Source: a virus
Lineage: Duplodnaviria; Heunggongvirae; Uroviricota; Caudoviricetes
DNA length: 10,411 nucleotides
IMG/VR virus record: IMGVR_UViG_2531839473_000009
Reading direction: 5' to 3' (one strand)
Each line of letters begins with the position of its first letter. The stretch's first letter is position 1. Position numbers and translations under genes: made by a program. Below the pieces are notes generated by a model, which searched no databases, had not been told where the DNA came from, and worked only from the letters and a program-made list of their open reading frames with translations. Shown piece after piece: positions 1-10,411 of the stretch.

Positions 1-1242
1 ATGGCGAGAAAAACACCCCCATTAACCACAGTGCAGATCAAAGCAGCCAGACCAGCGCAAAAGGAGTACACCCTACAGGACGGCGGTGGGCTTTTTCTCC
101 TGGTAAAACCGTCCGGATCAAAACTCTGGCGATTTTCCTACTACCGACCATCGGACAAAAAAAGAATATTGCTGAGTTTTGGATCGCTTGAAGATGTTTC
201 CCTGGCTGATGCCAGAAAACGCCGTAGCGAGTACAGGACGTTAATCAGTGCCGGAACTGACCCGCAGGACCATGAGAAGAAAAAACGAGAGGCAGAGGCC
301 CGAAGACAAGGGAACACGTTCGAAAATGTGGCGGCGGCATGGTACCAGGTGAAAATCAGCCAGAATCTGGCCCCCAACACGATTAAAGACATCTGGCGTT
401 CGCTGGATAAATATGTATTCCCGTTCATCGGCAACACGCCAATAGATACCCTCACTGCCCGAAGGTTCGTTGAGGTGCTTACACCCATCAAGGAGCGCGG
501 CAACCTGGAAACACTCAAGCGGGTTTTACAGCGCGTTAATGAGGTAATGGATTACGCCGCCAACAGTGGGCTGATTGATGCCAATCCGGCTATGAATGTG
601 CGTAAGGCGTTCCCCTCCCCTGTAAAAAAACATATGCCAACAATCCGCCCCGAACAGTTGCCGGAGCTTATGCAGGCTTTATCCGTATCAGCAACAGAAC
701 GGCAGACCAGATTACTGATTGAATGGCAGCTACTGACTGTAACCCGTCCGGTTGAAGCATCGTCAGCACGCTGGGAAGAAATCGACATGGACGCGCAACA
801 ATGGACGATCCCCGCCGGACGCATGAAGATGCGGCGTGATCACGTTATCCCGCTTTGTAGTCAGGCTATGGCGGTACTGGAGGCCATGAAGCCAATCAGC
901 CACCACCGCGAGCACGTTTTCCCTAGCCTGAAAGACCCACGGCAGCCTATGAACAGCCAGACCGCCAACGCAGCATTGCGGCGAATGGGATTCGCTGGCG
1001 TGCTGGTGTCTCATGGATTACGCGCCATATTCAGCACAGCAGCGAACGAGGAAGGATTCGAGCCGGACGTAATCGAGGCCGCACTCGCACACGTGGACAC
1101 GAACGAGGTAAGGCGAGCATATAACCGAAGTAACTACCTGGAAAAGCGCGTGGTGCTTATGCGCTGGTGGGGGGAATTTGTAGAGGCCGCAGCAACCGGA
1201 GTGACCATAGCCAGTGGTAAAAGGGGTATCCGTGCCGTGTAA
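1..1242 (+). CDS. int: Tyrosine-type site-specific integrase, P4/CP4-57 family (413 aa, apparently complete)
   Basis: N-terminus MARKTPPLTTVQIKAARP..YTLQDGGGLFLLVKPSGSKLWRFSY matches the arm-binding domain of P4-type integrases. C-terminus HGLRAIFSTAA...ALAHVDTNEVRRAYNRSNYLEKRVVLMRWW carries the H-x-x-R box and the conserved RAY..(catalytic Tyr)..LMxWW tail. ATG at window position 1, so the attachment site and any tRNA target lie upstream, outside the window. Confidence 0.92.
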   Translation: MARKTPPLTTVQIKAARPAQKEYTLQDGGGLFLLVKPSGSKLWRFSYYRPSDKKRILLSFGSLEDVSLADARKRRSEYRTLISAGTDPQDHEKKKREAEARRQGNTFENVAAAWYQVKISQNLAPNTIKDIWRSLDKYVFPFIGNTPIDTLTARRFVEVLTPIKERGNLETLKRVLQRVNEVMDYAANSGLIDANPAMNVRKAFPSPVKKHMPTIRPEQLPELMQALSVSATERQTRLLIEWQLLTVTRPVEASSARWEEIDMDAQQWTIPAGRMKMRRDHVIPLCSQAMAVLEAMKPISHHREHVFPSLKDPRQPMNSQTANAALRRMGFAGVLVSHGLRAIFSTAANEEGFEPDVIEAALAHVDTNEVRRAYNRSNYLEKRVVLMRWWGEFVEAAATGVTIASGKRGIRAV

Positions 1243-1756: not shown

Positions 1757-1963
1757 GTGGAAACAATCAGAAAAATTCTTACCCGTCAGGAAGTAAAAAA
1801 TATTCTGCGCATCAAGGCAGACAGTTCGCTACAGGACATGATCAACGCCGGAAAATTCCCGAAAGGCTTCAAAATCGGTCTGCGCCGTGTTGGCTGGTAT
1901 GAAGATGAAGTGCTGGCCTGGCTGAAAGAGCGCGAGGAAGAAGCGCGCGGAACGGCTGCGTAA
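1757..1963 (+). CDS. alpA: AlpA-family phage transcriptional regulator / excisionase-like DNA-binding protein (68 aa, GTG start)
   Basis: Sequence ..LTRQEVKNILRIKADSSLQDMINAGKFPKGFKIGLRRVGWYEDEVLAWLKER has the AlpA/Vis/TorI signature (G-FPK ... R-VGW-E-EV-AWL). SD GAGGT sits 7 nt upstream of GTG. Position right after int is typical. Confidence 0.85.
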   Translation: METIRKILTRQEVKNILRIKADSSLQDMINAGKFPKGFKIGLRRVGWYEDEVLAWLKEREEEARGTAA

Positions 1964-2142: not shown

Positions 2143-2245
2143 CCTCGACACAAGCTACACGTTATCCCCAACGCATGAGCATAGCCAACAATGCCACATT
2201 TGCGGCTGGTGGGCAAAGCGTAACCGGAAAAAAATTCCGGTGGAG

Positions 2246-2425
2246 CTACTCCTGCTCTTTGGCCTTGCGGCGCTGGCGGCGTTTGATCTCGCCGCGCATG
2301 GCTGCACTTATAAACTGCCCTGTACTTTCGCCTTCTTCTTTCACGTTTTCCATGCCTTCAATAATTTCATGGGCAATACGTGCAGTTACAGATTGTGATT
2401 TTGCATTCTTTGGACCTGTTGCCAT
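2246..2425 (-). CDS. Small DNA-binding protein (59 aa), candidate ribbon-helix-helix repressor
   Basis: Start chosen at the internal ATG (MATGPKNAKSQSVTARIAHEIIEGMENVKEEGESTGQFISAAMRGEIKRRQRRKAKEQE) because a consensus SD (AAGGAG) lies 6 nt upstream; the longer track ORF (to 2464) lacks one. Pattern of a short beta-strand (SQSVTARI), two helices and a basic tail resembles Arc/CopG/MetJ-type proteins. Transcribed divergently from an operator-rich promoter region. Confidence 0.6.
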   Translation of the reverse strand: MATGPKNAKSQSVTARIAHEIIEGMENVKEEGESTGQFISAAMRGEIKRRQRRKAKEQE

Positions 2426-2445
2426 GTCTAACTCCTTATGTTTTT

Positions 2446-2527
2446 GGTGTAAGACAATATACACGAAAAAAAATTATTTTGAAGGGTTGACGTGTAAGAC
2501 ACTATTATTTTATATTGTGTCTTACAC
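2446..2527. promoter_or_regulatory. Divergent promoter pair with three copies of a GTGTAAGACA(C) operator motif
   Basis: Rightward promoter: TTGACG (2487-2492), 18-bp spacer, TATATT (2511-2516). Leftward promoter on the - strand: TTCAAA, 16-bp spacer, TATATT (+ coordinates 2456-2483). Operator copies: GTGTAAGACA 2447-2456, GTGTAAGACAC 2492-2502 and its perfect inverse GTGTCTTACAC 2517-2527. The copies overlap the -35 and transcription-start regions of both promoters. Confidence 0.6.
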
Positions 2528-2624
2528 CTTGTTGATACAAGGTGCAGAAACGACGAAACCCGGCAGTGCGCTAACACTAACCGGGCTTCTAACCACCAAC
2601 GATAACGAGAGTATCGAGGTAGCT

Positions 2625-3239
2625 ATGTTAAATCATACCATACACCCGCAAGGGCGGGACTCGCACAACCTGAATAAATATATCTGGCGTTTTATCGCCC
2701 TGAGCACAGCACAACCGCGCGTGATTACCATTGAGGCCACCAGCGAACAGGAAGCACGCCAGAAAAACCAGTTGATCGCCATTGCCAGCCAGGGCTATGA
2801 TTTATCCGCACCAGCAAAATCTGGTGCCGGGATTGGCGTCCTGGTATTTAACGAAGCGCACAACACGCGCCCTGCGTGTTTTTTTGTGCCGGATAGTCAC
2901 ACCTTATCAATGGTGGGCTGTATGGGGGCGGAGCAATCCGCGCCGGGTTCTTCGTTAACCGGTTACGCCAACCCTGTACAGTCCACCGCCAGCGAAATTG
3001 GCGTTTCCTGCGGTGGGTTTATTAAACCTAACGAAGAGGCTGCCAACATGGCTACTATCCCTGCCCTCGTACATTCTCAAACTGCCTTTATCTGGCGCTT
3101 TATCATCTTTGGCGCGTCAGAATCCCAAATCATCCACGTAACCGCCTGGACGGAACGCGAAGCGCGTAGTCGTTGCCCGTCCGGTTGTGTTGCTGTATTC
3201 GCCGCCCGTATTCGTCAGGAGGTGCGCCATGTGCAATAA
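2625..3239 (+). CDS. Icd-like (host cell division inhibitor-like) protein, long form with two tandem Icd-like modules (205 aa)
   Basis: First ATG downstream of the rightward promoter, in the only long open frame. N-terminal module MLNHTIHPQGRDSHNLNKYIWRFIALSTAQPRVITIEATSEQEAR carries the HPQGR...IWRF...SE-EAR pattern I associate with Icd-like small proteins of P4-like islands. No stop codon separates it from the second module. The 1968..2624 part of the track ORF is rejected. Confidence 0.35.
   Translation: MLNHTIHPQGRDSHNLNKYIWRFIALSTAQPRVITIEATSEQEARQKNQLIAIASQGYDLSAPAKSGAGIGVLVFNEAHNTRPACFFVPDSHTLSMVGCMGAEQSAPGSSLTGYANPVQSTASEIGVSCGGFIKPNEEAANMATIPALVHSQTAFIWRFIIFGASESQIIHVTAWTEREARSRCPSGCVAVFAARIRQEVRHVQ
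3048..3239 (+). CDS. Icd-like small protein (63 aa), internal in-frame start of the same frame
   Basis: ATG at 3048 preceded by GAAGAGG 8 nt upstream. Product MATIPALVHSQTAFIWRFIIFGASESQIIHVTAWTEREARSRCPSGCVAVFAARIRQEVRHVQ is the more canonical Icd-like module (FIWRF ... EREAR ... FAxR) and has the size typical of that family. Its stop overlaps the next gene start. Confidence 0.45.
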   Translation: MATIPALVHSQTAFIWRFIIFGASESQIIHVTAWTEREARSRCPSGCVAVFAARIRQEVRHVQ

Positions 3240-3459
3240 AAACACGCCGGACGCAGCAGGCGAAGCATTGAAAGTACTGATACATGCGCTTGTGGATATA
3301 AATTGCATGGTAGAGATCATGGAGAGGAAATCACAGTCGGAGTACGACAAAAGAAAATTTAAAACAATAAAAATAATTATCAAAAACTCACTGACAAAAG
3401 CTACAGACATCCTCAATGAGGACACTAAAAGAATCAGGGAGAAACTGTGTGATGCATAA
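3229..3459 (+). CDS. Hypothetical protein (76 aa), AT-rich accessory gene
   Basis: ATG at 3229 with consensus SD AGGAGG (3216-3221). Overlaps the upstream stop by 11 nt. Local GC is about 30-37% (hand count of 60-nt blocks) versus about 55% in the flanks. Predicted lysine-rich product, no family recognised. Confidence 0.5.
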   Translation: MCNKNTPDAAGEALKVLIHALVDINCMVEIMERKSQSEYDKRKFKTIKIIIKNSLTKATDILNEDTKRIREKLCDA

Positions 3460-3679
3460 AATACCCTTTAATGTTCTTATTCATTCTGAGAATGCATTAA
3501 TCCGCGCAAAGGAAATGGAGGCATTATTACTTAAGTTAATGGAAGTGCCGGAAAATGGCGATGAATCATATCCCATGATGTTTTCTGCCGTGCACACATT
3601 ATTAACGCCAGTAATTAACGAATTAAATACAGTGATGGCAATTCACGAGAATAATAAAGCGCATCACACCGGAGAATAA
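3452..3679 (+). CDS. Hypothetical protein (75 aa), AT-rich accessory gene
   Basis: ATG at 3452 (MHKIPFNVLIHSENALIRAKEMEALLLKLMEV...) with SD-like AGGGAGA about 9 nt upstream. Overlaps the previous stop by 8 nt. Same low-GC block. The track ORF start at 3416 is rejected because it has no SD. Confidence 0.5.
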   Translation: MHKIPFNVLIHSENALIRAKEMEALLLKLMEVPENGDESYPMMFSAVHTLLTPVINELNTVMAIHENNKAHHTGE

Positions 3680-3684
3680 AAACC

Positions 3685-3984
3685 ATGAAACAGAAAAATT
3701 CTGGCTTTACTGCCAGTGGCCTCGCTCGGCCTGAAATCCGCCCCGGCGATATTTTCCGGGATAACTACGGCGGCACGGTAACGATTAAAAGCGTGGCGGG
3801 ACGGTGCGTAACTTACCGCCGTGAAGGTTACGAATATGATTGCGTGATGCCTGTTTATCAGTTCCGGCGTGATTTTTCTCTGGTACAGACCGCGCCGCAT
3901 AACGTGCCCACCAGCAACGCCAGGGCACGGGCAAACATCCAGAAGCTGAAAACCATGATTAACGGATTCAGGGGTAAAAAATGA
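3685..3984 (+). CDS. Hypothetical protein (99 aa) immediately upstream of and coupled to the primase gene
   Basis: ATG at 3685 with GGAGA 9 nt upstream. Its stop overlaps the primase start (ATGA, 3981-3984). Occupies the position held by small helper-interaction genes (epsilon-like) in P4-type left operons, but no sequence similarity can be asserted. Confidence 0.6.
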   Translation: MKQKNSGFTASGLARPEIRPGDIFRDNYGGTVTIKSVAGRCVTYRREGYEYDCVMPVYQFRRDFSLVQTAPHNVPTSNARARANIQKLKTMINGFRGKK

Positions 3985-5735
3985 AACTGGCACCGAACGT
4001 AAAACAGCAGTCACGCGGCATAAAACACAAAGAAACAGAAGTCATTATTTTTGCGGGTAGTGATGCCTGGTCACACGCAAAACAATGGCAGGAACATGAC
4101 GCGCGTCTGGCCGGAGATAATGAGCCTCCTGTGTGGCTTGGGGAGCAGCAGTTATCAGAACTGGATAAGCTGCAAATTGTGCCGGAAGGCAGAAAATCCG
4201 TGCGCATATTCAGGGCCGGATATCTTGCGCCAGTAATGATAAAGGCGATTGGCCAGAAGCTGGCGGCGGCAGGCGTACAGGATGCAAATTTTTATCCTGA
4301 GGGTATGCACGGCCAAGAGGTGCAGAACTGGCGCGAATATCTGGCCCGTGAGCGACAGAATCTTTCTGATGGTCTGGTCATTGAGCTTCCGGTAAAGCAA
4401 AAGGCGCAACTTTCGCAGATGGCGGACAGTGAGCGCGCGCAGCTGCTTGCCGATCGCTTTGATGGCGTTTGCGTACATCCTGAAAGTGAAATCGTTTACG
4501 TATGGCGCGGCGGGGTATGGTGTCCGGTCAGCACAATGGAACTTAGCCGCGAAATGGTGGCGATCTATTCAGAGCACAGGGCCACTTTCAGCAAGCGCGT
4601 AATCAATAACGCCGTGGAAGCGTTAAAAGTTATTGCCGAACCAATGGGCGAGCCGTCCGGCGATTTGCTGCCGTTCGCCAATGGTGCGCTTGACCTGAAA
4701 ACGGGGGAATTTTCCCCGCACACGCCGGAGAACTGGATCACCACGCACAACGGTATTGAGTACACGCCACCAGCACCAGGGGAGAATATCCGCGACAACG
4801 CGCCAAACTTTCATAAATGGCTTGAGCACGTAGCCGGAAAAGACCCGCGCAAGATGATGCGTATATGTGCCGCGCTGTACATGATTATGGCGAACCGGTA
4901 CGACTGGCAGATGTTTATTGAGGCCACCGGAGACGGCGGGAGCGGTAAAAGTACATTCACGCACATAGCCAGCCTTCTGGCAGGGAAACAGAACACGGTG
5001 AGCGCGGAGATGACATCGCTTGATGATGCTGGTGGACGTGCGCAGGTTGTCGGGAGTCGTCTTATCGTCCTGGCTGACCAGCCGAAATATACAGGCGAAG
5101 GAACGGGCATCAAGAAAATCACGGGCGGCGACCCCGTGGAAATTAACCCGAAATATGAAAAGCGTTTTACGGCGGTAATCAGGGCGGTGGTGCTGGCTAC
5201 CAACAATAACCCGATGATATTCACCGAACGGGCCGGAGGTGTGTCACGTCGTCGCATAATTTTCCGTTTCGACAATATCGTCAGTGAGGCCGAAAAAGAC
5301 AGGGAGCTACCGGAAAAGATTGCGGCTGAAATCCCTGTCATTATCCGCCGATTGCTGGCGAACTTTACCGACCCTGAGAAGGCACGGGCTTTACTACTGG
5401 AACAGCGTGACGGTGATGAAGCACTGGCAATAAAGCAACAGACGGATCCGGTTATTGAGTTTTGCCAGTTCCTGAATTTTCTGGAGGAAGCGCGCGGCCT
5501 GATGATGGGTGGCGGTGGTGATTCAGTGAAGTACACGACCAGGAACAGCCTTTATCGCGTCTATCTGGCGTTTATGGCGTACGCAGGCAGGAGCAAACCG
5601 CTAAACGTAAATGACTTTGGCAAGGCTATGAAGCCAGCCGCGAAAGTTTACGGACATAAATATATTACGCGGAAAGTTAAGGGAGTAACGCAGACTAACG
5701 CAATAACAACAGACGAGTGCGACGCGTTTTTATAA
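3981..5735 (+). CDS. Replication initiator: primase / SF3-type helicase (P4 alpha-like / D5 family, 584 aa)
   Basis: Walker A motif ATGDGGSGKST (nt about 4922-4954) and a Walker B-like RLIVLAD a short distance downstream. Large size, position after alpA and directly upstream of an iteron cluster match the pri-rep genes of PICI/P4-like satellites. Confidence 0.88.
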   Translation: MKLAPNVKQQSRGIKHKETEVIIFAGSDAWSHAKQWQEHDARLAGDNEPPVWLGEQQLSELDKLQIVPEGRKSVRIFRAGYLAPVMIKAIGQKLAAAGVQDANFYPEGMHGQEVQNWREYLARERQNLSDGLVIELPVKQKAQLSQMADSERAQLLADRFDGVCVHPESEIVYVWRGGVWCPVSTMELSREMVAIYSEHRATFSKRVINNAVEALKVIAEPMGEPSGDLLPFANGALDLKTGEFSPHTPENWITTHNGIEYTPPAPGENIRDNAPNFHKWLEHVAGKDPRKMMRICAALYMIMANRYDWQMFIEATGDGGSGKSTFTHIASLLAGKQNTVSAEMTSLDDAGGRAQVVGSRLIVLADQPKYTGEGTGIKKITGGDPVEINPKYEKRFTAVIRAVVLATNNNPMIFTERAGGVSRRRIIFRFDNIVSEAEKDRELPEKIAAEIPVIIRRLLANFTDPEKARALLLEQRDGDEALAIKQQTDPVIEFCQFLNFLEEARGLMMGGGGDSVKYTTRNSLYRVYLAFMAYAGRSKPLNVNDFGKAMKPAAKVYGHKYITRKVKGVTQTNAITTDECDAFL

Positions 5736-5749
5736 TTTTTTGTAATTGC

Positions 5750-5975
5750 TGTCTACCCTGTCTACCTGAGTAAAGAAAAATACATTTAATTCAGTGCATT
5801 AAGTTATGTAGATAGCCTTTTTTTACTATCTACCCACTATCTACCCTCTCTACCTGATTTTACCTGAATCAGACAGGGAGGTAGACACGGGGTAGATAGT
5901 GGATAAAAGCACTCTACCCCGCTGAAAGCCGCGCCATTACTGGCATGAGGGCCACTAAGGTAGATAAGGTAGACA
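5750..5975. repeat. Iteron cluster, candidate origin of replication
   Basis: At least five direct copies of core TCTACC (5752, 5761, 5829, 5840, 5849, plus CTCTACCCC at about 5913) and four inverted copies GGTAGA (5880, 5891, 5959, 5969). Many are spaced 9-11 bp apart in a non-coding gap directly downstream of the primase/helicase gene. Confidence 0.6.
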
Positions 5976-6023
5976 AGGGGAGGCACAACTCAAAACTTTT
6001 TAAACGAGGGGGTAAAAATAAAT

Positions 6024-6760: not shown

Positions 6761-6939
6761 CGGGTCCTCCTGGCGGGGTGGGCCTGAACACGGGGCGGGA
6801 GGCGCGGAAAAAAGCGCATTTTTGTGATTTTATCGTCATCATCATCATGAGCGTAATTTATTGTTTTTAATTGTTTTGATGCAAAAAAGATGATGGTTGT
6901 GGTTAATTTTTGTTCGACATCTTTGCAGGCAGATAAAAA

Positions 6940-6976
6940 AGCCCGATAAGGTCAGAGGTGGCTTATCGGGCTTTTG
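6940..6976. terminator. Second, bidirectional-looking intrinsic terminator
   Basis: Perfect 11-bp stem AGCCCGATAAG / CTTATCGGGCT with 11-nt loop, A6 run upstream and T4 downstream. Confidence 0.55.
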
Positions 6977-7052
6977 CATATGAGGCTTTTTGGTGCACTG
7001 ACACACATGATCGGGATCATCATTTCATAATTTGCAACACAACTCAACATCA

Positions 7053-7080
7053 TTGCATAAAATGCAATCATGATTATAAT
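7053..7080 (+). promoter_or_regulatory. Sigma70-type promoter upstream of the capsid module
   Basis: TTGCAT (7053-7058), 16-bp spacer, consensus TATAAT (7075-7080). The -35 element lies inside the palindrome TTGCAT-AAA-ATGCAA (7053-7067); further TTGCA half-sites are upstream (about 7031-7037). Confidence 0.45.
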
Positions 7081-7113
7081 CAGAACTGGATGAACATCCA
7101 GTTCTGATTTTTT
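7081..7113 (+). promoter_or_regulatory. Perfect 12-bp-arm hairpin plus T-tract directly downstream of the promoter -10 (candidate leader terminator/attenuator or operator)
   Basis: CAGAACTGGATG-AA-CATCCAGTTCTG (7081-7106) followed by A then T6 (7108-7113), about 25 nt upstream of the first capsid-module start codon. Confidence 0.45.
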
Positions 7114-9926: not shown

Positions 9927-10411
9927 TGGATTTGCCCCTATATTTCCAGACATCTGTTATCACTTAACCCATTACAAGCCCGCTGCCGCAGATATTCCCG
10001 TGGCGAGCGATAACCCAGCGCACTATGCGGATGCCATTCGTTATAATGCTCGAACGCCTCTGCAAGGTTCTTTGCTGCCGTTAACCCGTCTGGTTTGGGC
10101 ATGATACTGATGTAGTCACGCTTTATCGTTTTCACGAAGCTCTCTGCTATTCCGTTACTCTCCGGACTCCGCACCGCCGTGTTCTTCGGTTCAAGTCCCA
10201 ACATCCGGGCGAACTGGCGTGTTTCATTAGCCCGGTAGCATGAACCATTATCCGTCAGCCACTCCACTGGAGACGACGGAAGATCGTTGCCGAAGCGGCG
10301 TTCCACCGCTCCCAGCATGACGTCCTGTACTGTTTCACTGTTGAAGCCGCCAGTAGTCACCGCCCAGTGCAGTGCCTCACGATCACAGCAGTCCAGCGCG
10401 AACGTGACACG
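9927..10411 (-). mobile_element. IS2 (IS3 family), right end and 3' part, truncated by the window edge
   Basis: Terminal sequence TGGATTTGCCCCTATATTTCCAGACATCTGTTATCACTTAACC matches the remembered IS2 end adjacent to the orfB stop, including the conserved TTTCCAGACA...TATCACTTAA inverted-repeat core. Element boundary placed at about 9927. Target-site duplication cannot be checked because the other end is outside the window. Confidence 0.8.
9938..10411 (-). CDS. insD: IS2 transposase OrfB (InsD), C-terminal part; 5' end outside the window
   Basis: The reverse frame is open to the window edge (..[40 protein letters not shown]...[19 protein letters not shown]...[24 protein letters not shown]). 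It matches the IS2 InsD C-terminus from memory and has the DDE-domain tail typical of IS3-family OrfB. Confidence 0.9.

Follow-up and report, generated by a model that had tools for sequence, protein, structure and literature searches.

The stretch of DNA analysed here, IMG/VR virus record IMGVR_UViG_2531839473_000009 (10,411 nucleotides, hereafter the window), has the gene content of a phage satellite and is on that basis assigned, over its whole 10.4 kb, to the Gram-negative phage-inducible chromosomal islands (PICIs) of the EcCICFT073 type. Its early operon contains two small genes, ORF1 and ORF2, which lie between an Icd-like ORF and the genes for a DUF4222 protein and a primase-helicase (Table 1). 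The start of ORF1 overlaps the Icd-like stop by 11 nt (3229–3239) and the start of ORF2 overlaps the ORF1 stop by 8 nt (3452–3459), exactly as given, together with the product lengths of 76 and 75 aa and the consensus AGGAGG Shine-Dalgarno sequence of ORF1, in a first-pass annotation of this DNA. The last codons of ORF2 (HTGE) in turn contain the GGAG Shine-Dalgarno sequence of DUF4222, and the Icd-like ORF, ORF1, ORF2, DUF4222 and the primase gene are all joined by overlaps or 5-nt gaps. Neither a plus-strand promoter nor a terminator was found inside the ORF1-ORF2 block.

Base composition and coding status of ORF1 and ORF2

The low-GC block reported by the first-pass annotation is real, and GC across the region is not uniform when computed in sliding windows. 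ORF1 and ORF2 have 38.1% and 36.8% GC, and the region 3301–3540, previously put at 30–37% by hand count, has 33.8%, against 53.7% in the Icd/Ash ORF, 52.0% in DUF4222 and 52.6% in the primase gene (rather than the earlier figure of about 55%). The minimum-GC 440-nt segment of the window begins at 3263 (35.7%, about 3 standard deviations (sd) under the mean of 49.9%, sd 4.4%). The block is the window’s lowest-GC coding stretch, the remaining low-GC stretches (the divergent promoter region at 2300–2600, the origin of replication (ori) at 5600–6000, and 6800–7100) being non-coding. Codon usage separates the two genes. Given the codon usage of the island, the amino acids of ORF1 predict 42% GC, and its GC at third codon positions (GC3) is 45% where 51% is expected (z = −1.1, not significant), the low GC of this gene being mostly set by its amino-acid composition; the synonymous sites of ORF2, in contrast, are clearly deviant (GC3 36.5% versus 56.7% expected, z = −3.8, P = 0.0002). 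The block is flanked by no repeats or mobility genes, and neither repeats nor Rfam elements were found inside it.

Both ORFs are real genes under purifying selection. The ratio of non-synonymous to synonymous divergence (dN/dS) is 0.40 for ORF1 (12 unique alleles) and 0.20 for ORF2 (31 unique alleles), compared with 0.37 for DUF4222, and the variable sites of ORF2 show a third-position excess (29, 24 and 48 at codon positions 1, 2 and 3). Both reading frames are conserved in homologous islands, and RefSeq coding sequences of the same length, with the same overlaps, are annotated in copies with 98%, 88% and 81% nucleotide identity, each from a separate place in the chromosome (tRNA-Pro, rcnR and tqsA). 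An antisense ORF opposite ORF1 (3117–3425, minus strand, 102 aa, hydrophobic) was considered as a further gene and rejected as an artefact: it is open in all alleles, as synonymous-shuffle controls expect (P = 0.49–0.88), because of the K/E/N/I-rich amino-acid composition encoded on the sense strand.

Distribution of the two gene families

The family of ORF2, here called b, is a near-core component of these islands, fixed directly upstream of DUF4222 and the replicase gene. Across a comparison set of 72 related loci, most of them retrieved using ORF2-type genes or those of the ORF1 family (a) as query, every intact b gene (67 loci) has its stop exactly 5 nt ahead of the start of DUF4222, and the window has the same spacing (3679 to 3685); b is frameshifted or truncated in three loci and absent from two. 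The gene is found beside three unrelated replicases, a D5_N primase, a DUF927 protein and an AAA_25/RepA helicase. Of 5,426 complete E. coli genomes, 1,955 have flanking sequences of this island type; in complete E. coli genomes, to which the following counts also refer, DUF4222 occupies 2,024 places (1,554 genomes), b of the window type 219 places (200 genomes) and b of the EcCICFT073 type 969 places (813 genomes), so that blastn detects b at 1,188 or more, at least 59%, of the DUF4222 places. ORF2 matches phrog_2196 over its full length (residues 1–71) and a broad b hidden Markov model (HMM) at 3.8e-45, and it fits the family in length (~75–77 aa, 68–84 in outlying members). The helix motifs H-[SA]-E-N-x-L and [TS]-L-L-x-x-V-I-x-E-L (HSENAL and TLLxPVIxEL) are conserved, and the family alignment is hypervariable at the tip, or loop, of the predicted hairpin. 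Searching 1.84 billion representative proteins exhaustively with an HMM returned 14 b-family representatives, the named ones from E. coli and Yersinia enterocolitica, and by this measure the family appears tiny and confined to Enterobacterales. In one locus (L081, NZ_CP097170.1, 4001–4119) the initial 119 nt of an ORF2 homologue adjoin the gene for the single-stranded DNA-binding protein (SSB); this is a deletion product and no functional fusion, and a link between ORF2 and SSB (H78/H79) was rejected as resting on a deletion remnant ridden with insertion sequences (IS).

The deviant composition of ORF2 extends to its relatives. Every b subfamily examined is AT-rich (36–41% GC, GC3 30–37%), even at less than 40% protein identity to ORF2, and low GC is therefore an old and stable property of b and not a sign of recent arrival. 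Synonymous divergence is large, with dS of ~0.67 inside one subfamily and apparent saturation between subfamilies, so the persistence of a low GC3, together with a GC depression in excess of what the amino acids require (z = −3.8), suggests a lasting force at the nucleotide level. One form this could take is that the AT-rich tract of ~450 bp, always placed directly before the replication module, is itself an intragenic silencer, acting through H-NS or transcription polarity to keep DUF4222 and the primase gene off until induction, with the proteins secondary. We regard this as improbable: strong purifying selection (dN/dS 0.20) and the conserved helix motifs indicate that the b protein matters, no repeats, structure or Rfam elements were found in the block, and the slightly positive GC skew means the tract is not C-rich as a Rho utilisation site would be.

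The ORF1 family behaves differently, a being an optional cassette that, among the loci compared, always accompanies b or a remnant of it. ORF1 matches phrog_5146 over its full length as well as the N-terminus of phrog_2512, and has all the traits of its family: a length of 73–86 aa, the N-terminal pattern M-x-N-x-x-x-P-D-A-A...L-x-x-A-L-[IV]-D, and a start that overlaps the upstream stop. A profile search gathered 338 clusters (90% identity), exclusively from Escherichia and Shigella. Of the 72 loci compared, 50 contain a: in 29 it immediately precedes b, in 18 another small gene, m, lies between the two, and no locus has a without b or a b remnant (0/72). In some islands, among them L056 (3326–3790) and L057 (2951–3418), a and m are fused by read-through to one ORF of ~155 aa; fusions of this kind correspond to phrog_2512 (154 positions) and explain why ORF1 matches only its N-terminus. 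Genes of the ORF1 type are found at 48 places in 44 genomes, and the number of genomes with the full ORF1-ORF2 block equals that with full-length ORF1 (43 each), against 140–200 genomes for ORF2. Most a alleles have 49–53% GC, the clade of ORF1 being the AT-rich exception.

Recombination at a conserved junction, which holds the Shine-Dalgarno sequence and the stop/start overlap, adds, removes and reassorts the cassettes of this slot. All cassette boundaries share the arrangement ...ATTCG(Y)CAGG(R)GG, ~6 nt and ATG-NNN-AATAA (motif ATTCGYCAGGRGG, at 3208–3231 and 3430–3459 in the window), which puts the Shine-Dalgarno sequence and the downstream start within the last codons of the upstream gene. 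The number of small ORFs in the slot varies from 1 to 4, and alleles of ORF1 and ORF2 are discordant, 55 haplotype pairs having at least 95% identity in ORF1 and less than 90% in ORF2; compared with the window, locus L024 is 99% identical in ORF1 and 87% in ORF2, and L026 79% and 88%. Two loci (L033 and L042) have a hybrid junction in which an Icd-like 3′ end is joined at CAGGG to an ORF1 3′ end, the footprint of an ORF1 deletion through recombination at the motif.

These distributions bear on the origin of the block, which the first-pass annotation had taken for a separate horizontal acquisition of two genes together, suggesting anti-defence, helper-interference or toxin-antitoxin-like functions. 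Its placing of the genes between the regulators and the replication gene agrees with the publication of this zone as dynamic (PMC10111431), and the real GC dip, the significantly deviant codon usage of ORF2, the varying content of the slot, and the small helical products with a hypervariable ORF2 hairpin loop, like many phage inhibitor proteins, could all speak for recent foreign cargo from an AT-rich donor with an anti-defence or helper-interference role. The idea nevertheless has little to recommend it, because the two genes do not form a unit: more than half of the islands have ORF2 without ORF1, equally low-GC homologues of ORF2 occupy the same position across the family, and ORF1, whose GC is mostly dictated by its amino acids, varies by itself through the junction motif. 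The absence of flanking repeats argues in the same direction, as do the lack of any match in 50,697 phage genomes or in PADLOC and the restriction of a tiny family to Enterobacterales. Deletion of rppA by itself restores lambda plating in EcCICFT073 (PMC6739421), which argues against strong lambda interference by the a and b homologues there. Acquisition of the pair as an insert is thus not sustained, and no positive support was obtained for any of the three proposed functions.

Operon control and possible functions

Upstream of the two genes lies an RNA module (Table 1) whose parts suggest how the operon may be controlled. The candidate promoter falls within the AT-rich DNA that separates the Icd-like/RNA module from the divergently oriented, minus-strand ylcI/ynfO; a sub-threshold Rfam match to the SymR antitoxin RNA in the same region (2552–2624, minus strand, 33 bits, gathering 61) is probably noise. 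Because the RNA immunity module lies inside it, the long ORF at 1968/2625–3239 is probably not one protein. Two segments of the C4-type RNA are complementary to the second target set, in which TAACGAAGA overlaps the GAAGAGG Shine-Dalgarno sequence of the icd-like gene, and the same two segments are also complementary to 2833–2839 and 2848–2856, inside the isrK-like element. The C4 RNA is conserved in L003–L007, L009 and L033, and related islands have 0, 1 or 2 copies; C4 and isrK elements were previously noted in some Gram-negative PICIs (PMC10111431). From the sequence and from the P1 immI and P4 paradigms we infer that the island genes would be transcribed from a promoter near 2500 and translated as a coupled chain running from icd-like through a, b and DUF4222 to the primase gene, which the C4-type antisense RNA would close by covering the icd-like ribosome-binding site. 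Joined by overlaps or 5-nt gaps, the five genes are probably coupled in translation as a single chain, whose first link is the point at which C4 would close it.

Table 1 Features of the window, in order of position (nt; + and − denote strand)
Feature	Position	Strand	Evidence and remarks
P4-type tyrosine integrase	1–1242		
AlpA	1757–1963		PF05930
YlcI/YnfO	2246–2464	−	
Candidate sigma-70 promoter, early operon	2487–2516	+	TTGACG-18-TATATT, 10/12 matches; best in 2200–4200; consensus match only
‘Ash/Icd-like’ region	2625–3239	+	Encloses isrK-type RNA and C4/CI-type RNA
a1b1-like C4 target	2795–2847	+	c4-a1b1 42.9 bits, just below gathering 46.7; overlaps isrK element
isrK-type (P4 seqA-like) RNA	2808–2884	+	Rfam RF01394, 80 bits (gathering 50); intrinsic terminator 2862–2880
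C4/CI-type antisense immunity RNA	2906–2993	+	Rfam RF01695, 75.3 bits (gathering 45)
Second C4 target set	2998–3037	+	TTGGCGT 2998–3004; TAACGAAGA 3029–3037; complementarity search
Icd-like ORF, 63 aa	3048–3239	+	NCBIfam NF033153, 2.3e-16; first translated gene 3′ of RNA module
AGGAGG Shine-Dalgarno of ORF1	3217–3222	+	6 nt 5′ of ORF1 ATG; within junction motif GTATTCGYCAGGRGGTG (3208–3224)
ORF1, a family, 76 aa, pI 8.8	3229–3459 (ATG-TAA)	+	phrog_5146, 1.3e-9; optional cassette, AT-rich allele
ORF2, b family, 75 aa, pI 5.6	3452–3679 (ATG-TAA)	+	phrog_2196, 7.7e-9; near-constant DUF4222 neighbour
DUF4222 protein, 99 aa	3685–3984	+	Pfam PF13973, 1.2e-24; stop overlaps primase start
P4-alpha/D5-type primase-helicase	3981–5735	+	Pfam D5_N, DUF5906, Pox_D5; end of coupled chain
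ori-like iterons	5749–5980		Low-GC gap 3′ of primase gene (5743–5980)
phrog_1231 protein, then SSB	3′ of ori		
Lambda-E-type capsid protein, decoration protein, scaffold-like protein	3′ of SSB		Phage_cap_E, HDPD matches
RppA, 144 aa	9334–9768		95% identical to EcCICFT073 RppA (c1503)
Truncated IS3-family transposase	9938–10360	−	rve and rve_3 domains only

AlphaFold2 models both products as two-helix hairpins, ORF1 with a mean confidence score (pLDDT) of 88.6 and helices at 9–34 and 38–75, and ORF2 with 84.7 and helices at 6–30 and 39–73. In keeping with the earlier remark that neither resembles a recognised family, scans of Pfam (including the ANT, AntA and Bro domains), NCBIfam and PADLOC gave nothing above noise for either protein, and profile searches against PDB sequences returned only noise (E ≥ 0.03; FlgL, encapsulin). 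Foldseek found no match at E ≤ 0.001 for both models against PDB or for ORF2 against BFVD, the top matches being generic two-helix hairpins with E > 0.1 (encapsulated ferritin, EncB), so that these profile and structure searches, which the first-pass annotation had proposed, yielded unannotated PHROG matches and no significant named fold. A ferritin-like reading was rejected, inspection of the b alignment showing no conserved ExxH motif, as was paralogy of ORF1 and ORF2 (hhalign probability 0.3%). The families phrog_5146, phrog_2512 and phrog_2196 have no functional annotation and probably derive from satellites called as prophages, since tblastn of ORF1 and ORF2 found no match in 50,697 GenBank phage records. 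Functional work on these small ORFs was not found in the literature on DUF4222, EcCICFT073, Icd-like genes and C4 RNA. As the proteins are small and without catalytic motifs, a and b are probably, judging from the models, small binding proteins; these 8.5-kDa hairpins would act stoichiometrically, by binding partner proteins during the induced cycle.

A toxin-antitoxin-like or addiction pair, with ORF1 as a basic toxin and ORF2 as its acidic antidote, would account for the overlapping genes, for the opposite charge of the two products in this allele, and for the finding that ORF1-type genes never occur without ORF2-type ones while ORF2 is also found alone. We consider it very improbable. No toxin or antitoxin family was matched in Pfam, NCBIfam or PADLOC, and in place of a plus-strand promoter of its own, which was not found, the pair lies in the same long coupled operon in 72 of 72 loci. 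Gene m separates a from b in 18 loci, alleles reassort freely, unlike those of cognate pairs, and other a members look acidic by sequence inspection (pI not computed), so charge complementarity is apparently no family trait; ORF1 is, moreover, a predicted soluble helical hairpin with no toxin-like fold.

The reading we favour, at a probability of roughly 55%, is that ORF1 and ORF2 are two independent resident genes in the early operon of an EcCICFT073-type PICI, translationally coupled and closable by C4, whose products would act as stoichiometric binders. Several points weigh against it. The co-occurrence counts from the 72 loci are biased by the a- and b-based retrieval, and the lasting AT-rich codon usage of b has no explanation under it. 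The C4 module is missing from some islands that bear a and b (L001, L002 and EcCICFT073), so C4 control is optional and not universal. Alleles of b combine freely with different DUF4222 subtypes and replicase types, five loci that retain DUF4222 and the replicase have a disrupted b or none, and profile comparison with P4 epsilon, orf151 and Cnr revealed no homology.

Since b reassorts and is sometimes lost, a specific and essential partnership in replication is unlikely. Its fixed position supports a looser role. Our tentative suggestion, by analogy and at less than even odds, is that b and DUF4222 together modulate the replication or induction of the satellite, b being dispensable for this like Cnr in P4, and a being its accessory partner. 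A role in manipulating helper or host, in the manner of P4 epsilon or P1 Ant, ranks next and is a little less probable; the site in a dynamic zone after Icd-like genes would support it, and the restoration of lambda plating by rppA deletion alone weakens it. A composite of these ideas seems unlikely. In it a and b would be a new, Enterobacterales-restricted class of satellite early proteins, the counterparts in PICIs with lambdoid helpers of epsilon in P4 and Ant in P1; after the opening of the C4/Icd switch they would reprogram the cell by binding a regulator of the helper or the host (a repressor, or a replication or division factor, for example), and the AT-richness of b would serve also as a silencer of the replication module.

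Small uncharacterised genes in a zone of Gram-negative PICIs already published as dynamic are, as they stand, ordinary. The points of note are the stable AT-richness of the codons used in b, the closeness with which b is tied to DUF4222, and the shuffling of cassettes at the junction. At least 59% of the ~2,000 PICI copies in complete E. coli genomes, the laboratory model EcCICFT073 included, have b as a companion of DUF4222 and the replicase; the conserved junction offers a concrete mechanism for module shuffling in the early operon of a satellite; and the persistence of AT-rich codons in b is a small, unusual signal that deserves attention.

The island and known systems

The rest of the window agrees with its assignment. 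Its genes are largely unidirectional, beginning at the left end with a tyrosine integrase that has an arm-binding domain (Arm-DNA-bind_3, Phage_int_M and Phage_integrase), followed by the AlpA regulator (PF05930, 4.5e-8), and its ORF map contains no tail or lysis ORFs. Beyond the primase gene, CTRTCTACC iterons in direct orientation (5749–5857) and inverted GGTAGAYA iterons (5879–5980) form opposed sets around an AT-rich core, in agreement with the published layout of the PICI ori (PMC6092414). RppA is the protein that retargets the helper terminase small subunit (TerS), and its identity to the EcCICFT073 protein implies a lambda- or phi80-type cos helper. The IS3 fragment at the right end suggests that the right part of the island is interrupted or eroded.

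The RNA module resembles the immI region of phage P1. As there, the C4 RNA of the window has a pair of antisense segments, both of which have their target in two copies, and the second target set covers the ribosome-binding site of an icd-like ORF that is probably coupled to the genes after it. In P1, the genes downstream of icd are translationally coupled to it under the control of the c4 antisense RNA. Those genes are ant1/2; ORF1 and ORF2, which take the corresponding place in the window, do not belong to the Ant family.

The layout is likewise close to the left operon of satellite P4, where vis, the CI RNA/icd-like ORF, epsilon, orf151, orf106 and alpha follow one another; orf106 (DUF5375) is cnr. 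Both elements have an AlpA/Vis homologue, then a CI/C4 RNA within an Icd-like ORF, then overlapping small ORFs and a primase-helicase. The slot of ORF1 and ORF2 corresponds to the position of epsilon, orf151 and cnr, P4 has 8-nt stop/start overlaps like that between ORF1 and ORF2, and the junction from icd to the next gene is similar in the two elements (GGAGGTGTCCCGTGCGTAATAAAAA from icd-like to epsilon in P4, L082; GGAGGTGCGCCATGTGCAATAAAAA in the window). The proteins themselves are unalike. P4 epsilon, orf151, orf106 and Vis have no detectable similarity to ORF1 or ORF2 (hmmsearch E > 0.1, hhalign < 1%), the hhalign probabilities against the epsilon family being 0.2% and 0.5%, and P4 epsilon hits PF25738 at 2.9e-50, a family that neither ORF1 nor ORF2 matches. 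Epsilon is the protein by which P4 derepresses its helper, and we know of no helper derepression by Gram-negative PICIs. The helpers also differ, being lambdoid phages for PICIs of the window type and P2 for P4.

EcCICFT073 is the closest counterpart, with the same order of Icd-like gene, small ORFs, DUF4222, D5-type primase, SSB, capsid E protein, decoration protein and RppA. Its slot holds four small ORFs (z-a-m-b-DUF4222) against a and b only in the window, and it has no C4/isrK module, both parts of which are present in the window. The product of C_RS06965 (WP_001372127.1, cft_a) fits the a-family profile at 2.4e-39 and that of C_RS06975 (WP_001204962.1, cft_b) the b-family profile at 1.2e-29, ORF1 being ~40% identical to cft_a and ORF2 ~39% to proteins of the cft_b type. 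While cft_a has 52% GC as against 38% in ORF1, cft_b resembles ORF2 both in its 40% GC and in its position 5 nt before DUF4222. The EcCICFT073 genes tested functionally have been only those after the ori (PMC6739421), and since this laboratory model carries b, the function of the gene could be tested directly in an existing system.

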